Positions 51-36,858 of a stretch of 64,000 bases of DNA are shown here, one piece after another. This DNA comes from Patescibacteria group bacterium (GTDB taxonomy: Bacteria > Patescibacteriota > Patescibacteriia > UM-FILTER-42-10). Within the stretch, counting starts at the first letter, position 1. Each line of letters begins with the position of its first letter. The DNA lies in assembly GCA_041664365.1 (NCBI GenBank), contig JBAYKW010000001.1:71168-135167 (forward strand), read 5' to 3'. The translations under genes were made by a program, and so were the position numbers. The notes under the pieces are model-generated. The model ran no database searches. It was given only the letters and a program-made list of their open reading frames with translations, and was not told where the DNA came from.

Positions 51-3000
51 TTATTCTGACACTTCAACCGCTCCATCGCCTACGATAGCCTCAATTTCTG
101 CCACTATTCTGCCACTTAAACTGATTGCCGTTTTGGTTGAGATAGTTTTCGGACTCCCGCCATTTTTCCATACCAGAAAAACTTTATATTCTCCCTGATT
201 CTTTTCAAAAATTACTTTCAGCTTGTCCAGGGTTTCTTTTTCTAAATTGGCAATTTTGATTGTGATTTTCTTCTCTATAGATTCGGGTTTATTGGAATCA
301 GATTGTCCGGAAAATTCTTTTACTTTTTCACAAATCAATTTCGGGATTCCTTCTTTCGTATTTACTTTCCCGGTAACCAGCAGCATTTTATCTTCTGCCC
401 AGATTTCATGATTGTCCTTCAGTGTGGATGGAAAAACTATTATTTCCACCGCTCCGGTCAGATCTTCCAAAGTGACAAAGAGCATCTGCTCGTTGGTCTT
501 GGTAATTATTTTTTTAATTGAAGTGATAATTCCACCGACAGTTATATTTCTTTTCAGTCCCTTACTAAGTGTGTTGATCGGGCTGGTAATTTTCTCCAGC
601 TGCTCACGATAATCATCGAGCGGGTGTTCGGAGATATACATCCCGAGCAGTTGTTTTTCCCATCCCAGTCTTGTCTTCTTATCAACCGGTTCTGATTCGG
701 TCAGGCGTAACTTTGGGCTGTGCTCGGCGGGAAGCATACCGAAAAGGTTGGTCTGGCCGTTAAGTCTTTCTTTCTGACTGTTTTTCGCGTAAATCAGGAT
801 TGACTCCAGATTATCGAGAAGGGTTTGGCGATTGCCAAAATCATCCATTGCTCCGCATTTGATGAGGCTCTCCAGTGATTTCTTATTCAAATCCCTAGTT
901 TGTACGCGTCTGAGGAAATCCTCCAGGTTTTTATATTTACCGTCTTTCTTTCTTTCATCAATTATGGTACGGACAATATTAGTTCCGATATTTTTGATGG
1001 CCATCAAGCCAAAACGGATGCGTGGCTGCTCGGTACCGAGACTCTCCTTAACCACGGTAAAAGTTGAAAAACTTTCATTAACGTCCGGCGGAACAACCTC
1101 AATGCCGTGCTTTTTTGTTTCCGCAACTTCTACGGCGATCCGGTCAGTATTGCCGTAATCAGCGGTTAGAAGGGCGGCCAGAAACTGCGCCGGCCAATTG
1201 GCTTTCAAATAGGCTGTCTGATAGGCAATCAAAGCGTAACAGGCTGCGTGTGACCGGTTGAAACCGTACTCAGCAAATGGTTCTACGAAATCGAACAGTT
1301 TTTCAGCAATCCTTTTTTGAATGCCGTTTGTTATCGCCCCTTGGACAAATTTCTCTCTTTGCTCCATGAGCAGTTTACGGATTTTTTTACCGATAGCTTT
1401 ACGCAGAATATCAGCCTCGCCAAGGGTGAATCCGCACAAATCACGGGCGATCTGCAGAATCTGTTCCTGATAAACGGCAATCCCGTATGTTTTTTTCAAA
1501 ATGGGTTCCAGTTTCGGGTGGAGATAGGTAATTTTTTTCTTACCGCGCTTGCCCGCGATGTAATCTGGGATCAGCTCCATCGGACCCGGGCGGTACAGGG
1601 AAACCATTGCAATGATATCTTCTAAATCCGTCGGTTTCAGTTCTTTCAGATAACGGGTCATGCCGGAGCTTTCTAATTGGAACACCCCGATCGTATCGCC
1701 CTTTTGAAACAGTTTGAAAGCATTTTTATCATCCAGCGGAATTTTATCTATATCAACTTCTTCGCCGGTTGTCTTAAAGATTATATCTAAAGCGTTTTCC
1801 AAAATTGTTAGATTCTTGAGTCCGAGAAAATCCATTTTCAAAAGTCCCAGATCTTCAATCGGATTCAGCGAATACTGAGTGATGATTGTTTTATCATCTT
1901 GACTGGCATATTGCGTCGGCACGTGCTGTTCTAGCGGATCCGGAGCGATGACTATTCCACAGGCATGGGTAGAAGTATGACGTGCTACACCTTCCAGTTT
2001 TTTTGCAGTATCAACCAGTTTTTTCGCTTCAGAATCTGTATTGTATAGATCTTTCAGTTCGGGGACGGATTTTAGCGCTTCATCCAACGTCATAAACATC
2101 GGGATCATCTTTGCCACCTGGTCGCAGAAATTATACGGCAGTCCCTGCACCCGGCCGACATCCCGGATAGCGGCTCTTGCTGCCATCGTACCAAATGTGA
2201 TTATTTGGGCGACATGGTCTTTGCCATATTTTTCTTCAACATATGTTATGACTTCATTCCGGCGGGAGTCAGCGAAATCGATATCAATATCCGGCATCGA
2301 AATTCTCTCGGGATTCAAAAATCTTTCAAACATTAGTTCATAGTGCAGGGGATCCAGGTTGGTAATATTTAAAACAAAGGAAACAAGACTGCCGGCGGCA
2401 GAACCTCTACCCGGGCCGACCACAATTTTATTATTTTTTGCCCAGTTAACAAAATCCTGGACGATTAAAAAGTAGGAGGAAAATCCGGTTTTATGAATTA
2501 CACTCAATTCATATTCCAGCCGGTCAATGATTGTTTTTGTTTTTTCATCCGTAATATTTTGTTTTTCCGGGTCAGACGGAATGTCGATTCCAAATCTTTT
2601 TTTAATTCCCTGAAAGCACAACTCCCGCAGATATTCATCGGTTGTTTTTTTCTCCGGTGTTTCGTAATGGGGGAGCATGATTTTACCGAATTCTATTTCA
2701 ACATTGCATTTTTCGGCAATTTTTACGGTGTTTTCGAGCGCTTCCGGGACATGACTGAAATCTCTGGCCATTTGTTCCGGAGTTTTCAGGGAAAAATCCT
2801 CCCCGACATAGGAAATACGGTCCGTTTCTTCCTGCTTTCTTTTCATCTGGATGCATAAAAGCACGTCCTGCGGATACGCGTCCGCCGGTTCCAAGTAATG
2901 AACATCATTGGTCGCAACCAGCGGGATACTCAATTTTTTACCCAGCTCGATTAAACTTTCGTTGACTTTATGCTGTTGTTCGATACTCGGGTGATTCTGG

Positions 3001-3633: not shown

Positions 3634-4026
3634 TTATTTTTTTCTACGTCTTGCTTTATTGTTTACTTCTTCTTCAAATTCATCTTCATATTCATCATCC
3701 TTTCTGGACTTTCTGCCTTTAAACATATTCAATAAATCAGTTACGCCTTTTACCACTGTGGTAAGCATTGTTGTAGAATGTGTAATTTTTTCCCTAATCA
3801 AATTCAATACATTACCGAACTCCTCTACCTTACTCTTCACCTCTTCAACCATTTCTTTTGAAGATTTCAAAATCTGGGCGATGTAGTAAAGAATCCAAAC
3901 TGAAAATATTGTAACAATAAAAACACAAAGGGCGATCACAAGGAATAGAACGTCTTTGCTAGTTTCAAACATATGTTTATTTAATAAGAATAAATTTAAC
4001 AAGATTAAGTATATCATATATTTCAA
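3634..4026 (-). CDS. Small membrane protein, hypothetical (N-terminal TM helix plus charged coiled-coil tail)
   Basis: 130-aa ORF. The track start is TTG; the first in-frame ATG would be at 4017. It has one predicted hydrophobic helix and a KR/DE-rich C-terminus. No recognisable catalytic motif. Confidence 0.45.
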   Translation of the reverse strand: MKYMIYLILLNLFLLNKHMFETSKDVLFLVIALCVFIVTIFSVWILYYIAQILKSSKEMVEEVKSKVEEFGNVLNLIREKITHSTTMLTTVVKGVTDLLNMFKGRKSRKDDEYEDEFEEEVNNKARRRKK

Positions 4027-4073: not shown

Positions 4074-4946
4074 ATGCAGGAACAAACCATGGCAGAATAC
4101 AGCGATAAACAACTTAAGATAAGTATTTGGTGGGTAACGCACCGATATCAGCTTAAAAAATGGTGGGTCATTTTGATTGCCGTGGCTGATTTGATGGTTT
4201 TTTTGTATATTCTGTTCAATGTCATTATTTTGCTTGTCACATGGACCAAGTTCACTACTATACCTAGTCAGATCGGTGTATCATACATCGACTTTGGGGC
4301 GTATCAACAGACGAATTCCCCGCAAGCTATCCAGGTGATAAACACCAGTCTGATACCAATTCCTGGACAGGTTCAAAAATATAATTTAATTGCAGAAATA
4401 AAAAATCCGAACGCAAAATGGGTTGCTAATTCCTTAGTTTTTCATTTTGTTTTAGACGGGGTTGACTTAGATCAGGAAACTACATTTCTTCTGCCTCAGG
4501 AACAGCGCTATGTTTTTAAATATGCCGTAAAAAGTACAGCGGAAAAGCCAATTGCCAAATTAGTGGTTGACGCTCCGGGATGGGTGAGGGTAGATTTTCC
4601 TGAAAAAAAACCCGCTATCAATTTTGAAGTTACGGACATAAAAACTGATCTGATTCCTATCCTAGGTGAAAGAGGAACGCAATCTTCATATTCGACTAGG
4701 GTTACAGCAATGATAAAGAACAATACTGTTTACAATTTCTGGAATGTTAAATTTCTGGTTGTTTTGTATAGCGGTAATTTGCCGGTTGCTGTCAACGAAG
4801 CAAAATTTGATCGATTTGCTGCATTGGAATCAAGGGAGTTGGGACTTTCCTGGGGTGAAGAATACGGATCTGTTACAAGTGTGAAAGTTGTCCCGGAAGT
4901 GAATGCATATGATCCCACTATGCTGTATTCACCGGATGAATTCTAG
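4074..4946 (+). CDS. Hypothetical membrane-anchored protein (single N-terminal TM), immediately upstream of the SEDS gene
   Basis: The track start is GTG at 4062; the first ATG is at 4074 (MQEQTMAEY...). One TM helix (ILIAVADLMVFLYILFNVIILLV) is followed by a ~230-aa soluble domain. No known motif recognised. Confidence 0.55.
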   Translation: MQEQTMAEYSDKQLKISIWWVTHRYQLKKWWVILIAVADLMVFLYILFNVIILLVTWTKFTTIPSQIGVSYIDFGAYQQTNSPQAIQVINTSLIPIPGQVQKYNLIAEIKNPNAKWVANSLVFHFVLDGVDLDQETTFLLPQEQRYVFKYAVKSTAEKPIAKLVVDAPGWVRVDFPEKKPAINFEVTDIKTDLIPILGERGTQSSYSTRVTAMIKNNTVYNFWNVKFLVVLYSGNLPVAVNEAKFDRFAALESRELGLSWGEEYGSVTSVKVVPEVNAYDPTMLYSPDEF

Positions 4947-4962
4947 AATTTGATTTTTTCCT

Positions 4963-6081
4963 TTGATCGGTATGATATTTGATAAATATTTCTCACAATT
5001 TAAAAGGTTTGACTGGATACTTTTCACGATCGCCGTTATTCTGGTGATATTCGGGTTATTGGCGATTTATAGTATTTCGGTCAATCAGGAAAATGGATCA
5101 TTCAGCCTGCTGGTTACTCAGCTGGTTGCTTTTGGTTTGGGAACAATTTTTCTGTTAACGCTGGCATTCTTTGACTATCGGATATTGCGGGGGTATGCCA
5201 ATATAATATATTGGATAGGAGTTTCATTGTTATTAGGTGTTTTAATTTTTGGTATCACGGTGAGAGGAACAAAAGGATGGTATTCTTTCTTCGGCCAGGT
5301 ATTCCAGCCGGTAGAGGTTGTTAAAGTATTAATGATTATTTTCCTGGCCCGCTATTTGGCGCACAAAGCATCGGAACCTTTTACATTTAAAAATGTATTG
5401 ATCAGCGCCCTCTTTATCGGTCTGCCGGTTGTACTGGTGTTAATGCAGCCGGATTTAGGGTCGGCAATAATATTTATTTCCATCTGGGCGGGGATGACCT
5501 GGTTAACCAGAATTAAAAAGTCACATATCCTGATAATCATAGGCACTATGTTTTTTGTTATGTTCATCAGCTGGTTTTTTCTGGCGGATTACCAAAAAGA
5601 GCGGGTTTTAAATTTTGCCCAACCGACCCGCGATCCATTAAAACAGGGATATAATGTCACACAGTCGATAATATCTATCGGATCAGGGCAATTTTGGGGC
5701 AGAGGTCTTTCGCTCGGTCCGCAAAGCCGTTTAAACTTCCTGCCGGCAAAAGAAACAGATTTTGTTTTTGCTGTGATTGCGGAGGAGCTTGGTTTTATCG
5801 GCGCGTTTTTTGTAATTTCCATATTTGGTTTATTGTTTTGGCGGATTATTAAAATAATCCGCTCGGCTCAAGATGACTTCGGAATATACGTTGCCTGGGG
5901 AATTTTGGTCATGATTGTTGTTCAAATGTTTATTAATATCGGTATGAATTTAGGACTAGCCCCGGTCGCGGGATTGCCGTTGCCATTCATCAGCGCGGGA
6001 GGCAGTTCACTGATGATGAGCTTGCTTTCCATTGGTATCGTTGAAAGTATATATATCCGCAGAAAATCCTTAAAACTGTAA
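4963..6081 (+). CDS. SEDS family peptidoglycan glycosyltransferase (FtsW/RodA)
   Basis: 372 aa with about 10 TM helices. Conserved SEDS motifs GQFWGRGLSLGPQ, LPAKETDFVFAVIAEELGFIGA and PFISAGGSS are present. Confidence 0.9.
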   Translation: MIGMIFDKYFSQFKRFDWILFTIAVILVIFGLLAIYSISVNQENGSFSLLVTQLVAFGLGTIFLLTLAFFDYRILRGYANIIYWIGVSLLLGVLIFGITVRGTKGWYSFFGQVFQPVEVVKVLMIIFLARYLAHKASEPFTFKNVLISALFIGLPVVLVLMQPDLGSAIIFISIWAGMTWLTRIKKSHILIIIGTMFFVMFISWFFLADYQKERVLNFAQPTRDPLKQGYNVTQSIISIGSGQFWGRGLSLGPQSRLNFLPAKETDFVFAVIAEELGFIGAFFVISIFGLLFWRIIKIIRSAQDDFGIYVAWGILVMIVVQMFINIGMNLGLAPVAGLPLPFISAGGSSLMMSLLSIGIVESIYIRRKSLKL

Positions 6082-6704: not shown

Positions 6705-7970
6705 ATGACCAGAAGAAAAAAAATATTATTTTTACCGCACTCCGACGGGTTAGCGCACATAACCCGGTGTTTGACGATTGCTGATTTGTTGCCGAAATCA
6801 AAATATCACATAAGATTTGCGGTGAGTCGTGATAAACGTGACTTTGTCCGAAAAGCGGGGTATGGAACGTATACATTATCACCGTCAACCAGTTTTGATG
6901 TGGCGGAGGAGTATAAATTCGCGCAGAAAAATGAATATCTGGATTTGCTTTCCAATAACGTAGAAGAGGACTTGGATATTTTAAATAAATATAAACCGGA
7001 TGTGGTTATTTCTGATAAACGGACAACCGCCTGTATCTCAACCAGAATCAAAAAAATTCCGTGGATTACAATCGCGAATTCTATTTACCTGAAAGAGTTC
7101 TGGAAGGGGAACGGTTTGGATCTTTCAGAAAAAAAGCTTTTGAACCAATTTTACTATTTTGTCGGGTGGTTTTTTGTAAATTTTATTTCCAGGCAGGCAA
7201 TGAAAGTGCCTTTTCATAAAGTATCAAATCAATTCGCCAAGGCCTCGGTTTATGCCCAGTATGATGCGGATTTGAAACTGGTTGCGGACGTGCCGGAATA
7301 CGCCTCTCTCTCACCGCTACCCAGCGATGCATATTTTGTTGGTCCGTTATTGTGGCGTGGATTTGAAAAAAAAGAGCCGTCCTGGTTTAAAGATTTGGAT
7401 AAAACAAAGCCGATTATCTACTTATCACTCGGCGGAACTATTTATAACCAGGAAATGCTGAACAGTACTGTTGAAGCAGTTACTAATTCTGATTATCAGT
7501 TAATTGTAAGTCTAGGGCCGAATTTTAAACGAAATAAAATCGGTAAACTGCCGGATAACGTTTGGCTGGAAACTTATCTGCCCGGGCAAAGAGCCTGTGA
7601 GATCAGCGATATTGTAATTCATCATGGCGGTCATGGTACGGTTATGCAGGCATTGAAATACGGCAAGCCATGCATTGTAATTCCGCATAATTACGGTCAA
7701 TGGTACAATGCAAAAAGAATTGAACGGTTAAAGTGCGGGATAAACTTGAATCCGATTAAGGCATCATGGGTCAATCCAAATTCGTTATTAAAGGACGCAT
7801 TGGATGTTAAACCCTCTGAAATCAGATTTGCGATTGAAAAAATATTAAAACACGATAAGTACAGAAGAAATTCCGAAAAATTCAGAAAAACAATCCGTTC
7901 TTACCGTGAAGGTCATCGCGCGATAGACATTATTGAGCGTTTTATTAATACCCACCAAAAGCGGAAATAA
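6705..7970 (+). CDS. GT1 (MGT/UDP-glycosyltransferase-like) glycosyltransferase
   Basis: N-terminal Gly-rich acceptor domain. C-terminal donor-binding signature HHGGHGTVMQALKYGKPCIVIPH. Confidence 0.75.
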   Translation: MTRRKKILFLPHSDGLAHITRCLTIADLLPKSKYHIRFAVSRDKRDFVRKAGYGTYTLSPSTSFDVAEEYKFAQKNEYLDLLSNNVEEDLDILNKYKPDVVISDKRTTACISTRIKKIPWITIANSIYLKEFWKGNGLDLSEKKLLNQFYYFVGWFFVNFISRQAMKVPFHKVSNQFAKASVYAQYDADLKLVADVPEYASLSPLPSDAYFVGPLLWRGFEKKEPSWFKDLDKTKPIIYLSLGGTIYNQEMLNSTVEAVTNSDYQLIVSLGPNFKRNKIGKLPDNVWLETYLPGQRACEISDIVIHHGGHGTVMQALKYGKPCIVIPHNYGQWYNAKRIERLKCGINLNPIKASWVNPNSLLKDALDVKPSEIRFAIEKILKHDKYRRNSEKFRKTIRSYREGHRAIDIIERFINTHQKRK

Positions 7971-8049: not shown

Positions 8050-8094
8050 TAAGTACGATTAATCATACATTTCATACATTACAAAAAATACATT

Positions 8095-8355
8095 ATGCAT
8101 AAAGAACATTGCGAAAAAGATCATAAGGTATGCGGTACAACAACAATCGGTGAGCGAGGGCAGGTAGTCATCCCGGCAGAAGTTAGAAAGCGCATGAATC
8201 TGAAAACCGGTGACCGGCTTTTAGTATTCTGCAAATTTGATAAATTTGTCGGATTAGTAAAATCGGACGATATTGATACATTTTTGGATAAAATGACCGA
8301 AAAAATGGTAAGTAGGGTGGAAAAAATTAGAAAAGAAATAAAAGGAGTAAAATAA
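8095..8355 (+). CDS. AbrB/MazE/SpoVT-family DNA-binding protein
   Basis: Swapped-hairpin motif TTIGERGQVVIPAEVRKRMNLKTGDRLLV. 86 aa. Starts 4 nt upstream of the ABC ATPase gene. Confidence 0.7.
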   Translation: MHKEHCEKDHKVCGTTTIGERGQVVIPAEVRKRMNLKTGDRLLVFCKFDKFVGLVKSDDIDTFLDKMTEKMVSRVEKIRKEIKGVK

Positions 8356-9414: not shown

Positions 9415-10215
9415 ATGAAAAATGACATCAAACTGGAATTTAGATCAATGCGAAATATCTTTATGCGGGATATTTTGAGATTCTTCCGCGACAAGGCCAG
9501 AATTATCGGTTCAATTATGCAGCCTCTGATTTTTTTGGGCATCTTCGGGGTCGGATTGGAATCAACAATGAACATGGGTGGAGAGGGTTTAGGATTTAAT
9601 TTTGTACAATTCATGTTTCCTGGAATTATTGCCACGACTACGCTCGGGGTTGCGCTGAACACTTCCATCTCAATTGTGACTGATCGGGAATTCGGATTTC
9701 TGAAGGAAATCCTTGTCGCACCGGTTTCCCGGGCATCGATCATACTGGGGAAAATATTGTCCGGAGTTGTGATCGGATTATTTCAGGCAGTTTTATTGAT
9801 TGCTATATCACCGGTTTTCGGACTTTCGATTGACTGGGGCACGGTACCAGGGTTGCTGTTTGTTTCTCTTTTACTGTCTTTTGCTGTTACTTCGCTGGGT
9901 CTCTTTATCGCTACCAGGATGCGTAATGCCGAGGGGTTCCAGTTTGTGTTTCAGTTCTTATTCTTTCCGATGATGTTTCTTTCCGGCGCCTTCTTTTCAC
10001 TGACGAATGTTCCAAAATGGATGGAGATTGTCTCATCTATTAATCCGTTGACATATGCCGTAGATGGTCTGCGGAATATCGTATTCAGTAATGCGCCACA
10101 GCAGGTGATCGATTCCATTGTCATCCATTCATTATCTTTTGACGCACTAGTTATTGTTGCATTCGGGTTGGTAATGTTCGGATTGTCTTTCTGGAGCTTT
10201 AATCGCGCGGAATAG
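9415..10215 (+). CDS. ABC-2 family transporter permease
   Basis: 266 aa with six hydrophobic segments. Follows the ATPase, typical of ABC-2 exporters. Confidence 0.8.
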   Translation: MKNDIKLEFRSMRNIFMRDILRFFRDKARIIGSIMQPLIFLGIFGVGLESTMNMGGEGLGFNFVQFMFPGIIATTTLGVALNTSISIVTDREFGFLKEILVAPVSRASIILGKILSGVVIGLFQAVLLIAISPVFGLSIDWGTVPGLLFVSLLLSFAVTSLGLFIATRMRNAEGFQFVFQFLFFPMMFLSGAFFSLTNVPKWMEIVSSINPLTYAVDGLRNIVFSNAPQQVIDSIVIHSLSFDALVIVAFGLVMFGLSFWSFNRAE

Positions 10216-22794: not shown

Positions 22795-23373
22795 TTACCG
22801 GATTATGTACCAGGGATCGAATTCTAGCAGGCCATAGACGGTCTGCTTAGAGTCCTCGATCAACGGCCCCCTGTAATGCGGGCCGTACGTCTGCCCCCAA
22901 GTTACCTCCACGGTAACCAGGTGCATACCCGGTGCGAGGTTAGTGAACCGCGCGTTGTCCAGGCCGACTAACCATGGGTTGTCGGTCCGTATCCGGAAGT
23001 AGAAGTAGCCGTCGCGACCCTGCTCGGCAACGATGGGGCCGAAATCGTCGACCCAGACCTCGACGAGCATCACCTTGGAAAGAAACTCGTCGTGCTTCCC
23101 GACCTGAACCCTCATCAAGCTCTCGGTGTACCGCAGCTTGAAAGGTTTCTTCGGCTTTTCCGGCTTGGAGTAGCCGATCTCGCTGAACATCACGTGCCCG
23201 TTCTCGTCGGTGTAGCGCAACGCCATCAACTTGAGCTCCTTGGAGCCGAAGTTGGTTTCAGTGTGGATGTTGTACACGCCTTCGAAGTTTCTCCACATAT
23301 GAGTGGAACAACCCGAGAGCGCGAACGTGGCCGCAAGGACCACCAGAGTGGAAATGAACGTGCGCTTCTTCAT
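22795..23373 (-). CDS. Putative lipoprotein (high-GC gene, unknown function)
   Basis: The real start is taken as MKKRTFISTLVVLAATFALSGC (lipobox LSGC), with RBS AAAGGAG 7 nt upstream. The track ORF extends to 23484 through the leader. GC is about 57% against a window average near 40%. Confidence 0.6.
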   Translation of the reverse strand: MKKRTFISTLVVLAATFALSGCSTHMWRNFEGVYNIHTETNFGSKELKLMALRYTDENGHVMFSEIGYSKPEKPKKPFKLRYTESLMRVQVGKHDEFLSKVMLVEVWVDDFGPIVAEQGRDGYFYFRIRTDNPWLVGLDNARFTNLAPGMHLVTVEVTWGQTYGPHYRGPLIEDSKQTVYGLLEFDPWYIIR

Positions 23374-23392
23374 GGCGCTCTCCTTTGGGTTG

Positions 23393-23412
23393 ATCATCCG
23401 CTTTCGGATGAT
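23393..23412. promoter_or_regulatory. Palindromic repeat copy 1 in the lipoprotein 5' leader (ATCATCCG-CTTT-CGGATGAT)
   Basis: An 8-bp perfect inverted repeat with a 4-nt spacer, lying between the predicted -10 and the RBS. Confidence 0.4.
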
Positions 23413-23451
23413 GTGTGATCGCCGAATCTCGAGAATCCTGAGAGTCTGGAT

Positions 23452-23469
23452 ATCCGCTTTCGGATGATT
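23452..23469. promoter_or_regulatory. Palindromic repeat copy 2 (ATCCG-CTTT-CGGATGATT), 57 bp from copy 1
   Basis: Shares the 17-nt direct-repeat core ATCCGCTTTCGGATGAT with copy 1. Confidence 0.4.
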
Positions 23470-23501
23470 GAGTTGCTGATTCACCCATTGTGAAACATTA
23501 G

Positions 23502-30144: not shown

Positions 30145-30286
30145 ATAAGAATATTACTGTCACGCGGTAATTGGGGGATTATTTTTTTGAAAAAATCATT
30201 GGGGAGTAGCTCCGTTCATTCCACAAACGGAATGCACGGACGAGCAAGCGGTAATTATTTACATACTTGCTTTAACAATACATCAT

Positions 30287-30340
30287 TGGGGAGTAGCCAA
30301 GTGGTAAGGCAACGGGTTCTGGTCCCGTCACCGGGGGTTC
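30287..30340 (+). pseudogene. tRNA-Gln 5' fragment (positions 1-54, lacking the 3' half)
   Basis: 53/54 nt identical to 30667-30720. It is followed by unrelated GC-rich hairpins, not by the T-loop 3' half or the acceptor 3' strand. Confidence 0.6.
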
Positions 30341-30392
30341 TGCGCCCGAGGCGCACTCGCCTCCGGCGAGGAATCCTAAAATCTAAAACACA

Positions 30393-30662
30393 ATGTATTC
30401 AACCTATGTAATAAAAAGTATACATTTCCAAAGTAGGTACGTTGGCAGTACAGATAATGTTGAAAAAAGAGTAGAAGAACATAATAACGGCAAGTGTAGA
30501 TATACTAAGGGACGATCACCGTGGGTATTGATTTATAAAGAAGATTTTAATAGCAGATCTGAGGCAATGAAAAGAGAAAAGTTTTTGAAATCCGGTAAAG
30601 GTAGAAAATTGCTTGATGAAAAACTGAAAAAAATAGCAGATATCGAAAACAAAAATATTTAA
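30393..30662 (+). CDS. GIY-YIG (URI-domain) nuclease family small protein
   Basis: 89 aa. YVIKS (GIY), YVGST (YIG), RVEEHNNG and W/E/N motifs, as in COG2827/UPF0213 proteins. Confidence 0.8.
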   Translation: MYSTYVIKSIHFQSRYVGSTDNVEKRVEEHNNGKCRYTKGRSPWVLIYKEDFNSRSEAMKREKFLKSGKGRKLLDEKLKKIADIENKNI

Positions 30663-30666
30663 ACGA

Positions 30667-30740
30667 TGGGGAGTAGCCAAGCGGTAAGGCAACGGGTTCT
30701 GGTCCCGTCACCGGGGGTTCGAATCCCTCCTCCCCAGCCA
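30667..30740 (+). tRNA. tRNA-Gln (anticodon CTG)
   Basis: Manual cloverleaf fold. Acceptor TGGGGAG/CTCCCCA. D-arm GCC-AAGCGGTAA-GGC. Anticodon stem ACGGG/CCCGT with loop TTCTGGT. T-arm GGGGG-TTCGAAT-CCCTC. Discriminator G and encoded CCA. Confidence 0.85.
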
Positions 30741-30759
30741 AAAGGATTTTAGAAAGAAT

Positions 30760-30790
30760 CAACGTGAATAGAGCACGTTGTTTTTTTATT
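30760..30790 (+). terminator. Intrinsic terminator downstream of tRNA-Gln
   Basis: CAACGTG-AATAGAG-CACGTTG followed by TTTTTTTATT. Confidence 0.6.
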
Positions 30791-30897
30791 AGTGTGGATT
30801 CGAACGGGCAGAAGCGAAACAATCCGGAGCGAAGTGAAGGAGCAGTAGAGCGTCGACAAATGCGAGCCTGCGTAGCATTTGGCGCTGCCCAGGACGA

Positions 30898-30917
30898 GAA
30901 TCCCTCCTCCCCAACCA
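30898..30917 (+). repeat. Direct repeat of the tRNA-Gln 3' end (att-like)
   Basis: GAATCCCTCCTCCCCAACCA matches tRNA 30721-30740 (GAATCCCTCCTCCCCAGCCA) at 19/20 positions. It lies inside the high-GC island. Confidence 0.5.
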
Positions 30918-30990
30918 CGGGTCATCAGACCCTTCACCTGTCACAACCAAGCAAGCTTGGTTGTTTTAGGTTGCGGGTCTGTGCCCCTTT

Positions 30991-31040
30991 CCCCAACCCG
31001 CCAAGGGCGGGTCGGGGGCCCCATTTTTTGGTTTTATTTT
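30991..31040 (+). terminator. GC-rich intrinsic terminator inside the island
   Basis: CCCGCC-AAG-GGCGGG plus a GGGGGCCCC palindrome, followed by ATTTTTTGGTTTTATTTT. Confidence 0.45.
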
Positions 31041-31183
31041 CTGTCTCGGCGAAGATGAGCTCGGCTAGTCAAGCCAATGCCTTGCGCGCTCCTGTTGCGC
31101 TCAGGATAAATAATGAATAAAGATGTTTGTTTATAAATGGGATTTGAACGGATGTGCTAAGCAAGGACGTTCTGGCTATTATT

Positions 31184-31212
31184 GACATGCCAACCTACAT
31201 AATGTAAGTTGC
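31184..31212 (+). promoter_or_regulatory. Sigma70-type promoter of the Cys-rich gene
   Basis: TTGACA, 17-nt spacer, TAAGTT. Followed by RBS AAAGGGAGG 8 nt before the ATG. Confidence 0.45.
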
Positions 31213-31253
31213 ACACTGCGTAGCTCATCTTCAGTCTGAAAGGGAGGAAAAGC

Positions 31254-31763
31254 ATGAGCTTCAGTGACTTGATATTGCGGATGTACTGTCTTAGTCCATT
31301 CCGCTTCACGGCAACCAAGTGCGGTCATCGCACAAAGCGTACCGGAAAGTTGTCCGCGTTCGGACTCACTGTGATCTGCAGGAGCCCCATGAACACTGAC
31401 GGTTCGGTGGATTACTGTCATGACTGCCTTGGCAGTATGACCATCCAATGCGTGTGGTGCGGTGAACCGATTCTTGTCGGTGATCCGATTACGCTGTACA
31501 CGCCTGCGATTGCACTGTTTGCGCCGGTAGATGAATGGTGTATTCCCAAACATGCGGTCATCTACCGCAAAGAGCATCCTGTTCAACTCGTCGGTTGCCT
31601 CAGAATGAGTTGCGCCGATTCCAGCGCGGATCGAGCAGGGTTCTGGCTTCCGGGTGAAGACGGTAAAGGCCGTGTCCTGCGGGTACAAACTGCACTTGAA
31701 GCCATCCTTAACGCACCTGTATCGTCAATCATGCTGGTGCGCGACACGCACGACTTCGCTTGA
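31254..31763 (+). CDS. Cysteine-rich hypothetical protein (high-GC island cargo)
   Basis: 169 aa with 11 Cys, including CHDC...CVWC. Strong SD. About 56% GC. The antisense ORF 31179-31688 is judged spurious. Confidence 0.5.
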   Translation: MSFSDLILRMYCLSPFRFTATKCGHRTKRTGKLSAFGLTVICRSPMNTDGSVDYCHDCLGSMTIQCVWCGEPILVGDPITLYTPAIALFAPVDEWCIPKHAVIYRKEHPVQLVGCLRMSCADSSADRAGFWLPGEDGKGRVLRVQTALEAILNAPVSSIMLVRDTHDFA

Positions 31764-31923
31764 AGCGATGAATTTGACGTTCATTCCTCTCGATAACCAT
31801 CCGGCTAGGTAGCCACCAAATTCCGGTAGGTATGGCGGGCTGACATTTCATGATGTTAGCTCTTTTTATTGGAAAAATGACTGCATAATTAAACCCCTAT
31901 ACTTAGTTTTATATTTTTTTAAA

Positions 31924-31951
31924 TTGATAATCCGTGCAAATCTGCTATAAT
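31924..31951 (+). promoter_or_regulatory. Sigma70 consensus promoter of rubrerythrin
   Basis: TTGATA, 16-nt spacer, TATAAT. Confidence 0.5.
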
Positions 31952-31958
31952 TAAATCC

Positions 31959-31977
31959 GATATAAATAATCATTAAC
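31959..31977 (+). promoter_or_regulatory. Fur/PerR-box-like site between the -10 element and the rubrerythrin start
   Basis: GATATAAATAATCATTAAC matches the 19-bp Fur box GATAATGATAATCATTATC at 15/19 positions. Confidence 0.3.
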
Positions 31978-31987
31978 ATCAATTGAT

Positions 31988-32563
31988 ATGGGAAATTTAG
32001 CAGGTTCTCAAACAGAAGAAAATTTGCTCAAAGCATTTGCCGGGGAATCACAGGCCAGAATGCGTTATGATTATTTTTCCAAGCAGGCAAAAAAAGAAGG
32101 ACTGGAACAGATCTTCGGGTTTTTTGAGGAGACGGCGATGAACGAACGCGAGCATGCCAAAGTGTTTTTTAAATTCCTGGAAGGCAATATGGTGGAAATT
32201 ACCGCGACCTATCCGGCGGGAAAAATCGGAACTACATTGGAAAACCTGAAAGCGGCGGCGGATGGGGAGAACGAAGAATGGACGAAGCTCTATCCGGAAT
32301 TTGCAAAAGTTGCTGACGAGGAAGGATTTAAGGAAATTGCCAATGCCTTTCGGAATATCGCTAAAGTAGAGGAACAACACGAAAAAAGATACAGAAAACT
32401 GTATCAAAATCTGGACGAAGGAAAAGTATTTGTCAGTGGAGATAAAATAGTCTGGAAATGTCGGAATTGCGGCTATTTGCATGAGGGCACAAAGGCTCCG
32501 AATATCTGCCCGGCTTGCCAGCATCCGCAGGCTCACTTTGAAATATTTAAACAAAATTATTAA
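31988..32563 (+). CDS. rbr: Rubrerythrin
   Basis: Ferritin-like diiron domain (two EXXH motifs). C-terminal rubredoxin-like CxxC...CxxC (CRNCGY...CPACQHP). Confidence 0.9.
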
Positions 32564-34946: not shown

Positions 34947-35270
34947 TTAGGGGTTATCTGGTGGGACGAGGATCATGTTGAGCGACATACCGAGCTTGCC
35001 GAGTTTCTCGATGAGATCGATCAATGTCCTTCTACCAAAGTTCCGGACCGACATGAGGTCTTCTTCGGTCGTGAGGACAAGATCGAGGATGGTGCGTATG
35101 TGGAGATCACGGCAGGCGTGCTTCATCCGTACAGAGGCATCTAATTCTGCCACTTTCATGCACACCACTTGGATGGGGATAACGACTGTGTTGCCATCCT
35201 GTGCGCGGAGTGGAATACACAGTTCACCCGATTGTCTCACGATCATGCCAACGGCTAGTAGCTTACTCAT
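34947..35270 (-). CDS. Free-standing RNA polymerase alpha-subunit C-terminal domain (alphaCTD) protein
   Basis: Start taken at MSKLLAVGM, with SD AGGAGGAGGTGA 4 nt upstream. The track start MEHRL lacks an RBS. The C-terminal 65 aa align in pattern with E. coli RpoA 250-315 (ELDASVRMKHACRDLHIRTILDLVLTTEEDLMSVRNFGRRTLIDLIEKLGKLGMSL vs [55 protein letters not shown]). About 60% GC. Confidence 0.65.
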   Translation of the reverse strand: MSKLLAVGMIVRQSGELCIPLRAQDGNTVVIPIQVVCMKVAELDASVRMKHACRDLHIRTILDLVLTTEEDLMSVRNFGRRTLIDLIEKLGKLGMSLNMILVPPDNP

Positions 35271-35361
35271 CTGTTCACCTCCTCCTATGGAGCAGTCTAA
35301 AGAGACACAAAGGCGATGCTCCATCGTAATTTAATGTTTCTAAATTGTCAAGCCCCGTTTG

Positions 35362-35440
35362 AAATAAAAAAATGGACCTTTGAACAGAAGCTGTTCGCAG
35401 GTCCTTCACGGGAATGAGCGGGTGGCCGTACTAGACGGCC
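35362..35440 (-). repeat. 3' module copy B (after pepT)
   Basis: About 80% identical to copy A. The inner stem is GAACAG/CTGTTC where A has GAACTG/CAGTTC, a compensatory double substitution preserving pairing. The pepT stop codon sits in the GGCCGTACTAGACGGCC hairpin. Confidence 0.6.
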
Positions 35441-36696
35441 TGGTACTCGGTGTACAGAGCGATGATGTGCTTCAGGATCAAGGCAGTACACTCGAGCTCA
35501 TCGACCACCAGGAATTCCTCCTTGCCATGGAGGTTGCGGGAGCCGTAGCCGATGTTGGGTGTGGCACAGGTGGGGTAGATCATGTTGAAGCCGGCGCCGT
35601 CCGTCCCGCCGCGGACGTTGTGATCGGAGGTGGTGACACCGTGGATAGCGTGTGCCGCGTAGATCGGCTGGAGCAGGTCGCGGTTGGCTTCGTTGATCGA
35701 GCGGTTGTTGATGCACACCGTCTCGTCCGACACGATCTTGAAGGTACAACCTTCGGCCCTGGCGCACTGCTGTGCGACCTGGACTGCGCGTCGCATCATC
35801 ACGTCCGTTTCCTTCTCGTCGAAGGAGCGGGGGACGATGAGCAGGCTGGCCTTGCCGGCGTCCATCTTAGCGTCCACGATGTAGAAGAACGGTGCCCTGC
35901 GGTCAGCGATGCCGGCGTACGGGTTGAGGAAGAGCTGTTCCATCTGCATGGCGAATGCCATCGCCGCGTAATGAGCGCGGTGGAGCTTGTGCGGGTAGAC
36001 GCCGGGGTGGGCGTCAGCGCCGTAGAACTCCATCTTCACCATCCGGCAGGCGAAACAGCCCAGGTCGATCTCGCCGACCGGACCTCCGTCCACGGTGAGC
36101 AGAACATCCCACGCACCGGCGATCTCCGGCGGGATGTTCTTCCCCTTGATGCGACCGATCTCCTCGTCGGTGCAGATCCACAAGTCGAGCGGTCCGTGCG
36201 AAAGTTGCTTGAGGAGCATGTTGCCAACTGCGTCAACGATGACGGCTAGACCACCCTTGTCGTCTGCACCGAGCAGACTGTCGCCGGAGCCGGTGATGAT
36301 GGTCTTGCCCTCCAGTCCCGTGAGGTCTTCGGCGGGGATCACGACATCACCCTTCGGCAGCACGATGCTCCCGCCCCGATAAGGGGGATGGATGATCGGA
36401 GTGACGGCGCCGGAAACGCCGGGGTAGGTGTCGACGTGTGCGGAAAGGCACAGGTACGGCTTGTCTTCGAGTCCTTTGGTCGCCGGGAAGCGAACGATGA
36501 GTTCACCTTCCGGCAGGTCCACGAACTGGCCATCGGCAGTGCCCAGCTCGAGCAGGCCGTCTTTCAAGAGGTGCATGACTTCAAGCTGTCCGGGGCTTGT
36601 CGGGAACTCCGTTGACTCGGCGTTCGAAGCTGAGTCCACGCCGACATAGCGCAGGAACAGTTCCGTGACCGGAGCGAGTGCGGTCGGTTGGTTCAT
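35431..36696 (-). CDS. pepT: Peptidase T (tripeptide aminopeptidase, M20B)
   Basis: Start at MNQPTAL with SD GGGAGG; the track start is TTG at 36711. Motif ELFLRYVGVDS as in PepT N-termini. HxD, GADDKGG and EEIG metal ligands. About 62% GC. Confidence 0.85.
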   Translation of the reverse strand: MNQPTALAPVTELFLRYVGVDSASNAESTEFPTSPGQLEVMHLLKDGLLELGTADGQFVDLPEGELIVRFPATKGLEDKPYLCLSAHVDTYPGVSGAVTPIIHPPYRGGSIVLPKGDVVIPAEDLTGLEGKTIITGSGDSLLGADDKGGLAVIVDAVGNMLLKQLSHGPLDLWICTDEEIGRIKGKNIPPEIAGAWDVLLTVDGGPVGEIDLGCFACRMVKMEFYGADAHPGVYPHKLHRAHYAAMAFAMQMEQLFLNPYAGIADRRAPFFYIVDAKMDAGKASLLIVPRSFDEKETDVMMRRAVQVAQQCARAEGCTFKIVSDETVCINNRSINEANRDLLQPIYAAHAIHGVTTSDHNVRGGTDGAGFNMIYPTCATPNIGYGSRNLHGKEEFLVVDELECTALILKHIIALYTEYQAV

Positions 36697-36858
36697 GCCG
36701 AAACCTCCCAAGAATCGGGTAATTGTCTACTGTACCCGGAAATTGGGCACAGTTTTGGTTTTTACCATATTATTTTGACTCTGGCAAGCTAGGGTAGTCA
36801 CATAGTGACTGCACTGACAAGTCGCCAGAAGCAGCAATATTTGATACAATAATCCGGT

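Follow-up and report, generated by a model that had tools for sequence, protein, structure and literature searches.

We examined a 64,000-nucleotide (nt) stretch of DNA, hereafter the window, from a Patescibacteria group bacterium (UM-FILTER-42-10; GCA_041664365.1, contig JBAYKW010000001.1, positions 71,168-135,167), and in it the surroundings of its one tRNA gene, tRNA-Gln(CUG). On the DnaX side of this gene lies a short gene for a putative GIY-YIG nuclease, which ends 4 nt upstream of the tRNA, and on the other side, before the rubrerythrin gene, lies a gene for a 169-amino-acid (aa) cysteine-rich (Cys-rich) protein. The initial annotation had read the DNA downstream of the tRNA as one foreign island from ~30790 to ~31870, rich in guanine plus cytosine (GC), derived from a high-GC donor and marked by a 20-nt copy of the tRNA 3' end as an att-like repeat. 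When GC was computed in 200-nt windows, it was 0.33-0.42 before tRNA-Gln, 0.575 over 30800-31099, 0.50-0.555 over 31200-31799 and 0.32 over 31800-31999. The rise and the fall are thus real, but an AT-richer dip (GC 0.395-0.47) at ~31000-31299 separates two GC-rich blocks. The 20-nt repeat was also found, the tRNA 3' end at 30721-30740 being matched at 19 of 20 positions by 30898-30917, and it is kept in relatives. An inverted T-loop fragment, GGATTCGAAC, is indeed present, at 30796-30805 rather than at 30806-30815. The hairpins and terminators that had been noticed were borne out by four terminator-like sites (30760-30780, 30943-30964, 31009-31021 and 31837-31862) and by the stable fold of 30918-31030 described below.

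Close relatives were reached via homologues of the neighbouring DnaX. Four loci, L065, L066, L067 and L068, in which DnaX is respectively 87%, 82%, 77% and 75% identical to that of the window, keep the order DnaX, tRNA-Gln, a variable slot, rubrerythrin and 2-hydroxyacid dehydrogenase. A DnaX scan of metagenomes returned no closer relatives, only distant ones (at most 60% identical), and these distant loci were used for the surveys of GIY-YIG genes and of modules reported below. The Cys-rich gene is absent from the slot in all four close relatives, each of which holds other genes there (Table 1), in a comparison that draws on only 3-4 close relatives.

Alignment with these relatives resolved the region, which had been taken for a single foreign island, into three parts, of which only the last 770 nt are lineage-specific cargo. 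The first part, 30741-30917, is shared with L066 (window 30664-30885 at 90.6% identity) and with L068, and is precisely missing from L065, where the CCA end of the tRNA is joined directly to CGGGTCATCAGACCC..., which corresponds to window 30918-31151 at 87% identity. Therefore, the window carries a precise extra unit of 177 nt bounded by the 20-nt repeat. The second part, 30918-31151, aligns with L065 and with L068, and its module B (30918-31030) is lacking in L066. Homology with the relatives ends after GGGATTTGAACGG at 31151, and the third part, 31152-31921, showed no DNA homology to any of the four. The precise absence of the module from L065, together with cargo that differs in all four relatives, bears out the proposal of a tRNA-linked insertion site. 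The repeat pair, however, is shared by relatives with other cargo and therefore predates the Cys-rich gene and does not bracket it. It encloses only 157 nt, is present in L066 and L068, which lack the gene, and neither delimits nor dates the cassette. As to a matching attR at the right boundary, no copy of the tRNA 3' end within 7 mismatches was found at the right edge of the cargo, and none at this edge in the relatives. An 8-mer at 31891, AAACCCCT, was considered as a right att copy and set aside, because 1685 of 2000 shuffled sequences matched equally well.

The 177 nt between the two T-loop junctions (30721-30897) comprise a replacement tRNA 3' end, a terminator, the inverted T-loop copy and a GC-rich core, and carry no cargo. 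The inverted copy is the left arm, and the stretch behind it the core, of module A, and a GGATTCGAAC-type motif opens the GC-rich segments of all four relatives. The inverted copy can pair with GAATCC of the displaced 3' copy, which we call F3, and within the core GGGCAG (30806-30811) could pair with CTGCCC (30885-30890) around a further inner hairpin. In module B, a long, imperfect hairpin at 30926-30981 is followed by an intrinsic terminator that is rich in GC (30991-31021) and has a T-run at 31024-31029; the predicted fold of the module reaches -60.4 kcal/mol against -37.7 kcal/mol for shuffled sequences (z = -6.0). Furthermore, 30918-31022 is 98% identical to L065, in which coding DNA is 80-83% identical. 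In L068, the GGGATTTGAACGG motif is followed immediately by a decayed tRNA 3' part and forms a cargo-less module. Roughly one-third of the presumed foreign DNA (30791-31151) is thus conserved non-coding DNA of the lineage, which owes its GC to hairpins rather than to a foreign donor. The start of module B gave no viral match when considered as phage DNA, and ten viral matches of GGATTCGAAYGGGCAGAA were attributed to chance, nine of the ten lying inside apparent coding sequence.

Upstream of the tRNA lie two 5' fragments of tRNA-Gln, at 30200-30254 and 30287-30376, that the initial annotation had missed. The first, F1, consists of tRNA nt 1-11 (30200-30210), a 34-nt D-loop hairpin insert (30211-30244) and nt 12-21 (30245-30254). 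It occupies the position of the intact tRNA in L066, with its upstream flank aligning with the tRNA flank of that relative, and L068 holds a homologous fragment in the same place. The second, F2, consists of nt 1-54 (30287-30340, 53 of 54 matching), a 30-nt GC-rich double hairpin in the T-loop (30341-30370) and GAATCC (30371-30376), and then ends. In both fragments, the hairpin inserts sit exactly in the loops, in the D-loop after nt 11 and in the T-loop after nt 54. F3, in turn, begins exactly in the T-loop, as att-type repeats do, so that F2 (nt 1-54) and F3 (nt 55-74) are the exact halves of one tRNA-Gln, split between GGTTC and GAATCC. Equivalents of F3 were found in L068, in L067 (15 nt) and, decayed, in L066. 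In L065, an F2-type arrangement with larger D-loop and T-loop hairpin inserts accompanies the GIY-YIG gene, and module A is missing. The GIY-YIG gene is missing from L066 and L068, which carry module A and F3, and L068 has, besides its F1-type fragment, a second cargo-less mini-module, GGGATTCGAACGGGTGGAAACCCCTCTTCCCCAGCCA. Each hairpin insert is unique within the window, which disposes of a dispersed repeat family, and for the idea that F2 and F3 reflect a group I intron or a split tRNA there was no Rfam support and, by eye, no convincing complementarity. Hairpin-expanded pseudo-tRNA-Gln sequences were also seen in L065, L068, L079, L098 and L107. At L067 9741-9868, a clearly distinct tRNA-Gln allele (acceptor TCGGGGA...) has taken over, and 15 nt of the usual 3' end of the clade, CCTCCTCCCCAGCCA, are left 37 nt downstream of it; whole-gene tRNA replacement thus also occurs at this site.

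From this anatomy, we conclude that the region is a layered variable slot in the 3' flank of tRNA-Gln rather than one island, a reading to which we assign a probability of about 0.62. The layers, the breakpoints in the T-loop, the presence and absence of the layers among relatives, their conservation and the turnover of cargo were observed directly, and the history that follows is a proposal. DNA would have been inserted repeatedly into the loops of tRNA-Gln, mostly into the T-loop between nt 54 and 55, each incoming piece bringing the part of the tRNA that restored one intact gene. This would have shifted the 5' fragments upstream and moved downstream both the former 3' end (30898-30917) and, behind it, the native trailer and terminator of the tRNA (30918-31151), the 20-nt repeat being this displaced 3' end. 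In the simplest history, a unit with a whole replacement tRNA-Gln (30341-30897) would have been inserted into the T-loop of the resident gene, and parts would then have been lost through recombination between the 54-nt and 20-nt repeats. From the T-loop-like motif (31139-31151) to the rubrerythrin promoter (31924), the lineage exchanges cargo freely, and the cargo now in place is a self-standing transcription unit that encodes a small protein with two predicted zinc sites.

Table 1. Features of the tRNA-Gln region of the window and of the loci compared with it
Locus	Feature	Coordinates	Strand	Remarks
Window	F1, oldest 5' pseudo-fragment of tRNA-Gln	30200-30254	+	sequence repeats; homologue in L068
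Window	F2, 5' pseudo-copy of tRNA-Gln	30287-30376	+	repeat family; weak Rfam tRNA match, 20.2 bits
Window	89-aa protein, GIY-YIG catalytic domain only	30393-30662	+	Pfam PF01541, E = 6.8e-16, residues 1-71
Window	Functional tRNA-Gln (CUG), CCA encoded	30667-30740	+	ARAGORN; Rfam RF00005, 60.8 bits
Window	AT-rich spacer with current tRNA terminator	30741-30795	+	stem 30760-30780 and T-run; conserved in L066 and L068
Window	Left arm of module A, inverted T-loop copy GGATTCGAAC	30796-30805	+	reverse complement of tRNA nt 51-60
Window	GC-rich core of module A	30806-30897	+	84% identical to L066, 60% to L068
Window	F3, tRNA-Gln 3' end, nt 55-74, apparently displaced	30898-30917	+	19/20; discriminator G to A
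Window	Module B, native tRNA-Gln trailer, apparently displaced	30918-31030	+	directly 3' of the intact tRNA in L065
Window	Conserved tail of module B, ending in degenerate inverted T-loop motif GGGATTTGAACGG (31139-31151)	31031-31151	+	
Window	Cargo cassette, this genome only	31152-31921	+	promoter, Shine-Dalgarno (SD) sequence, open reading frame (ORF), terminator
Window	Cassette signals	TTGACA 31182-31187; TAAGTT 31205-31210; SD GGGAGG 31242-31247; terminator 31837-31862	+	
Window	169-aa Cys-rich protein	31254-31763	+	10 cysteines; uncharacterised Patescibacteria family
Window	Rubrerythrin promoter, right slot edge	31924-31951	+	TTGATA-16-TATAAT with TG; homology with relatives resumes
L065	Slot			GIY-YIG gene just upstream of tRNA; phosphoribosyltransferase
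L066	Slot			one 226-aa ORF
L067	Slot			ORFs of 391 and 68 aa
L068	Slot			FTR1; ORFs of 387, 397 and 67 aa
L065	GIY-YIG gene	9668-10135		
L079	GIY-YIG gene	2269-2523		
L107	GIY-YIG gene	4322-4732		
L118	GIY-YIG gene	2664-2942		
L123	GIY-YIG gene	9562-9972		
L010	Palindromic module	5160-5316		
L013	Palindromic module	~6810-6980	-	
L036	Palindromic module	~8085-8235	-	
L082	Palindromic module	4963-5147		
L125	Palindromic module	9832-9938		

The GIY-YIG gene is closely tied to tRNA-Gln. When the GIY-YIG protein of the window was used as the query against ~1.43 Mb of Patescibacteria loci, 6 of the 12 relatives found directly abutted a same-strand tRNA-Gln, just upstream or downstream of it, and none abutted any of the other 60 tRNA genes in these loci. 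Among the close relatives, the gene lies beside tRNA-Gln in the window and in L065 and not in L066-L068. The arrangement recurs far from this clade: L079, with a DnaX only 45% identical, has a 5' fragment with a D-loop hairpin, a GIY-YIG gene, an intact tRNA-Gln, a GC-rich module and a decayed 3' fragment in this order. In L107, tRNA-Gln is followed by a GIY-YIG gene and then by a second copy in which an 18-nt hairpin replaces the D-loop, and L098 holds a second tRNA-Gln copy with hairpins in both loops.

Modules of the same layout were found beside other tRNA genes. In 84 tRNA genes with adequate flanks, we searched 300 nt for exact copies, at least 10 nt long, of the last 26 nt of each tRNA gene; inverted copies lay downstream of 11 genes and upstream of one, and direct copies downstream of 10 and upstream of one. 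Both kinds occurred in the same order at seven of the 84 genes (four Gln, including that of the window, two Glu and one Tyr), the inverted copy 47-91 nt and the direct copy 127-213 nt past the gene. The five palindromic modules listed in Table 1 follow tRNA-Glu, tRNA-Tyr and tRNA-Gln genes and consist of an inverted 3'-end copy, a structured GC-rich core and a direct copy. The preserved ones fold as a long stem of the two tRNA-derived arms with hairpins at matching positions, with z values against shuffled sequences of -10.0 (L010), -6.6 (L013), -5.2 (L036) and -4.6 (L082); L125 is the exception, at -1.9. Module A of the window is a degenerate member of this group, with z about 0. Two tmRNA genes have, after their terminators (L003 ~3920-3935 and L015 ~2780-2795), their own 3' end in inverted form, TGGTGGAGATG in L003 and GGAGATGG in L015, the former followed by the core motif GGGGTCGAGAG. 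Modules of this kind thus seem to occur at tmRNA genes as well, in L003 and L015 upstream of a gene of the Cys-rich family.

The cargo of the window is a real gene. The ORF at 31254-31763 has 111 homologues at E <= 0.01 in a set of 5.8 billion proteins, and a profile search extended the family to 760 cluster representatives (50% identity), all 150 of the relatives listed being single-domain proteins of 98-240 aa. In the public annotation, the gene (WCW66_00520, 124 aa) is given an internal methionine as its start. The alignment with homologues of 175-198 aa begins at residue 1 and covers the full 169 aa, which supports the longer reading with its strong SD and places the public start too late; compared with these homologues, the protein of the window lacks ~10-20 C-terminal residues. 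An overlapping minus-strand ORF (31179-31688) gave no family match and, lying opposite the homologue-supported plus-strand gene, was treated as its shadow. The protein contains 10 cysteines and not 11 as first counted. The conserved ligand set is C23, H25, C55, C58, C66, C69, C115 and C120, in which the cysteines are invariant and H25 is nearly so, and the motif DRAGFW.PGEDGKG is conserved as well. The promoter first described as TTGACA-N17-TAAGTT was upheld in its TTGACA element and in its layout, a TTGACA-N17/18-TGnTAAATT-like arrangement recurring upstream of homologues together with a strong SD and terminator of their own; the -10 element TAAGTT, however, matches the consensus at three of six positions and was not called by the promoter scan.

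The description of the protein as of unknown function also held, as no known family or fold was matched in the searches run. The best Pfam matches stayed below their cut-offs (PSI, 15.9 vs 23.1 bits; PHF5, 13.7 vs 26.7 bits); NCBIfam, PHROGs and PADLOC gave no match; and a profile search of PDB sequences returned nothing better than E >= 0.34. The AlphaFold model (pLDDT, the predicted local distance difference test score, 88.3; pTM, the predicted template modelling score, 0.80) gave Foldseek matches at E >= 0.9 against PDB and E >= 0.5 against BFVD, the only ones being insignificant LIM-like zinc-finger matches. Domain fusions offered no clue to function, none occurring among the 150 relatives listed, and over 62 loci the family genes had no conserved neighbour. 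No paralogue exists in the window, and the second ORF of L001 (176 aa) proved unrelated. Judging from the residue pattern, the eight conserved ligands would fit two predicted zinc sites, and our best guess is that the protein is a zinc-stabilised factor binding nucleic acid or protein, with no enzymatic part in the insertions.

A Patescibacteria metagenome-assembled genome has the exact protein in its annotation, and the homologue loci, which come from 57 species genomes, are named Patescibacteria except for a few Gammaproteobacteria and Bdellovibrionales records, which are probably mislabelled. The family was absent from 2.9 million viral contigs, and a phage origin was therefore rejected. 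The gene is atypical in composition, as the initial annotation had held: its GC is 0.54, with 0.55, 0.49 and 0.58 at the first, second and third codon positions (GC1, GC2 and GC3), compared with a GC2 of ~0.32 and a GC3 of 0.34-0.46 in host genes. A high-GC donor is nevertheless unneeded, since homologues are Patescibacterial and the family is richer in GC than its host nearly everywhere, exceeding neighbouring ORFs by a mean of 0.08 in GC2 and 0.10 in GC3 over 51 loci. The cargo most probably came from another Patescibacterium.

Members of this family favour the 3' flanks of tRNA and transfer-messenger RNA (tmRNA) genes. Within 1.2 kb on the 3' side of such a gene lay 12 of 61 family loci compared with 28 of 496 control ORFs (p = 1.4e-4, to be read as indicative only, as the controls include unverified ORFs, the loci were sampled non-randomly and some cases may share ancestry); on the 5' side lay one of 61. 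Among members at least 47% identical, 7 of 17 stood on the same strand within 1.2 kb downstream of a tRNA or tmRNA gene (tRNA-Ser, tmRNA or tRNA-Glu), compared with none of 40 more distant ones. The closest homologue, P0002, follows a tRNA 3' end truncated by the contig edge, and in L010 a perfect 18-nt copy of the tRNA-Glu 3' end, starting from the T-loop, lies between the tRNA and the family gene. The left edge of the cassette in the window coincides with the T-loop-like motif at 31139-31151. As a signal upstream of all family genes, a loose T-loop-like pattern was enriched only about twofold, which is not decisive, and the motif GGGGTCGNGA was found 11 times against 10.9 expected overall, 6 of the 11 in tRNA or tmRNA flanks. 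At L001 3971-4916, a LAGLIDADG-type ORF (faint Pfam match) ends 18 nt before tRNA-Ser, and a gene of the family follows 85 nt later; the order of nuclease gene, tRNA and Cys gene is that of the window, with another nuclease family and another tRNA.

As to the enzyme, we prefer a model in which the adjacent GIY-YIG nuclease would cut the T-arm region of the tRNA gene and repair or gene conversion would follow, as proposed by analogy with T4 SegB. Two points favour this origin of the tRNA-proximal scars: the GIY-YIG gene is tied to tRNA-Gln across deep divergence, and among the scars are 5' fragments and inverted copies, for which integrase models make no provision. Several observations weigh against the layered-slot reading or against this part of it. 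No second, DNA-binding domain was found in the 89-aa protein in Pfam or NCBIfam; L066, L067 and L068 are scarred yet lack the gene; and there are modules behind tRNA-Glu, tRNA-Tyr and tRNA-Ser genes that have no GIY-YIG gene in their vicinity. Because of this bare catalytic domain and of scarred loci and modules devoid of the gene, a recombinase acting in trans is a serious alternative, or the agent may be some other trans-acting enzyme. The slot yielded no integrase either, the GIY-YIG and Cys-rich genes being the only supported ORFs between DnaX and rubrerythrin. The predicted fold of module A in the window has the stability of shuffled sequence (z = 0.2). A history of two separate insertions, both at one T-loop position, would fit equally well. 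As for how the cassette entered, no repeats flank it, and even its nearest homologue shares only 62-64% identity. Its GC excess is partly intrinsic to the family, and another part fits non-native codon usage.

The alternative that survives best, though we hold it unlikely, is a classical islet made by an integrase in the 3' end of tRNA-Gln, with the 20-nt repeat as attL/attR, the Cys-rich gene as surviving cargo and the integrase since deleted. Such an islet would account for a repeat that starts in the T-loop, as in the ssrA islands of Dehalococcoides, for the precise absence of the unit from L065, for compositionally atypical cargo, for the bias of the family to tRNA and tmRNA 3' flanks and for the 18-nt tRNA-Glu copy of L010. 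It runs, however, into the position of the Cys-rich gene outside the repeat pair, into a repeat and module A common to relatives with other cargo, and into the finding that in no relative does a 3' copy mark where the cargo ends on the right. Besides the lack of an integrase in the slot, no tyrosine-recombinase box was found among the ORFs of the 64-kb window by a crude motif scan, which is a weak test, and no integrase was recognised by eye, with no domain search run, among the ORFs downstream of module-bearing tRNAs in eight other loci. The absence of the family from viral contigs speaks against it as well, and the 5' fragments and inverted T-loop copies would remain unexplained.

Less probable again is that 30791-31151 encodes structured RNA, the repeat being kept for RNA function and not as an insertion scar; module A would then be a tRNA-like minihelix RNA, and module B, transcribed together with the tRNA, would be a small RNA or a processing signal. 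As this explanation would have it, module B is better conserved than coding DNA and very stable, and the preserved modules elsewhere fold with the strongly negative z values of L010, L013, L036 and L082, their long stem imitating the acceptor and T arms and their hairpins falling at corresponding places. Of four left-arm hairpins, three have a CTGC loop in common, and core motifs resembling GAGCYGGGGTCGNGAG were seen in L003, L010, L013 and L162. In Rfam 15, however, only the tRNA passed, with nothing in 30741-31253 and no match for the modules of L010 and L013. Module A of the window is as stable as shuffled sequence, lies behind an intrinsic terminator and had no promoter called for it, and the sole two-sided change between the window and L068 gives another mismatch. 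Module A is precisely lost in L065 and module B is missing from L066. The co-variation of the outer stems with the local tRNA is trivial, as these stems are copies of that tRNA.

An assembly or binning chimera, in which the assembler joined GC-rich DNA to a low-GC backbone, was suggested by the sharp GC steps at ~30790 and ~31870 and by two further high-GC blocks in the window, but is excluded for practical purposes by an independently assembled Logan contig of 1,019 nt from run SRR6484324, which is 100% identical to window 30975-31993 and spans both cassette edges and the right GC step, by recurrence of the left step (tRNA, terminator and GGATTCGAAC) in L066 and L068, and by a backbone syntenic on both sides in four relatives. 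The two further blocks coincide with slots of differing genes in L065-L068. One, at 22795-23484, is a 229-aa ORF with a GC3 of 0.78, and the other, at 34947-36711 (GC 0.62, GC3 0.81), holds an ORF with an RNA-polymerase alpha C-terminal domain and a PepT-like M20 peptidase, its counterpart slot in L065 holding an M29 peptidase (GC 0.61-0.67).

The initial annotation is thus partly supported: its observation was sound and its general idea of tRNA-linked acquired DNA right, whereas its specific island model was not. Patescibacteria have tiny genomes, in which gene gain is poorly understood, and this locus points, at base-pair resolution, to a tRNA gene as a recurrent entry point, with scars on both sides of the tRNA and cargo turnover among relatives with DnaX 75-87% identical. 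Recurrence at other tRNAs and in distant lineages suggests insertion without an integrase gene in the slot, which island-finding tools would miss. The locus also flags a large, Patescibacteria-only family of predicted zinc proteins with a preference for tRNA and tmRNA 3' flanks. A more speculative suggestion, which we put forward as doubtful, is that the tRNA-flank modules, in which inverted and direct copies of the last ~20 nt of the tRNA enclose a GC-rich core, and the hairpin-expanded pseudo-tRNAs represent an undescribed class of small mobile element in Patescibacteria. Such an element would target the T-loops and D-loops of tRNA genes and, by supplying replacement tRNA pieces, leave the host with one functional gene. 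A minimal GIY-YIG nuclease or a factor acting in trans would drive it, and its insertions would open slots for cargo exchange. If only the layered anatomy holds, the locus is an ordinary tRNA-adjacent variable region, and a caution that a GC step and a tRNA repeat need not be the limits of an island.

A tRNA-adjacent variable region with an orphan gene is of a known kind, and the palindromic tRNA-flank modules, the hairpin-expanded pseudo-tRNAs and the link between GIY-YIG and tRNA-Gln look undescribed in the literature searched. As an analogy only, integron attC sites and the folded single-strand attP of CTX phage are imperfect palindromes of ~100-180 bp beside exchangeable cargo. They resemble the modules in a conserved structure with variable sequence and in arms that imitate the target site; the modules differ from attC in that core sites (RYYYAAC and GTTRRRY) are absent, the arms GGATTCGAAC and GAATCC being copies of the tRNA's own 3' end, and in that no integrase lies nearby, any link to IntI or XerCD being conjectural. 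Integration hotspots between core genes and phage morons, which are autonomous units of promoter, gene and terminator, share with the locus a slot between conserved neighbours, accessory genes that vary by lineage and a self-contained cargo unit of atypical composition. Here, in contrast, the tRNA-side edge of the slot coincides with a tRNA-derived palindromic motif, and the family to which the cargo belongs is limited to Patescibacteria, with no member among the viral contigs searched.

The ssrA islands of Dehalococcoides, which target tRNA and tmRNA genes with a crossover in the T-loop and include integrase-less, 'cis-mobilizable' tandem members (PMC3146451), also show a 20-bp direct repeat of the gene's 3' end, several tandem repeats downstream, strain-specific cargo and units without integration genes. 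At the present locus, by contrast, no integrase was found in the slot; the repeats bound a unit of just 177 nt, to which an inverted T-loop copy belongs, and leave the cargo outside; and 5' fragments have also accumulated upstream. The free-standing GIY-YIG homing endonuclease SegB of phage T4 recognises a site that takes in the conserved T-psi-C stem-loop motif of tRNA genes, and sequence next to the site is co-converted (PMC2330249). Compared with it, the candidate here is an 89-aa catalytic domain devoid of a DNA-binding domain in a cellular genome and not a phage, its link is specific to tRNA-Gln, pseudo-tRNA pieces with hairpin inserts are duplicated, and its cleavage is putative. In both cases, a GIY-YIG gene lies among or beside tRNA genes and is present or absent among close relatives, and the homing of SegB carries flanking tRNA-region DNA along, to which the turnover at this locus may be likened.

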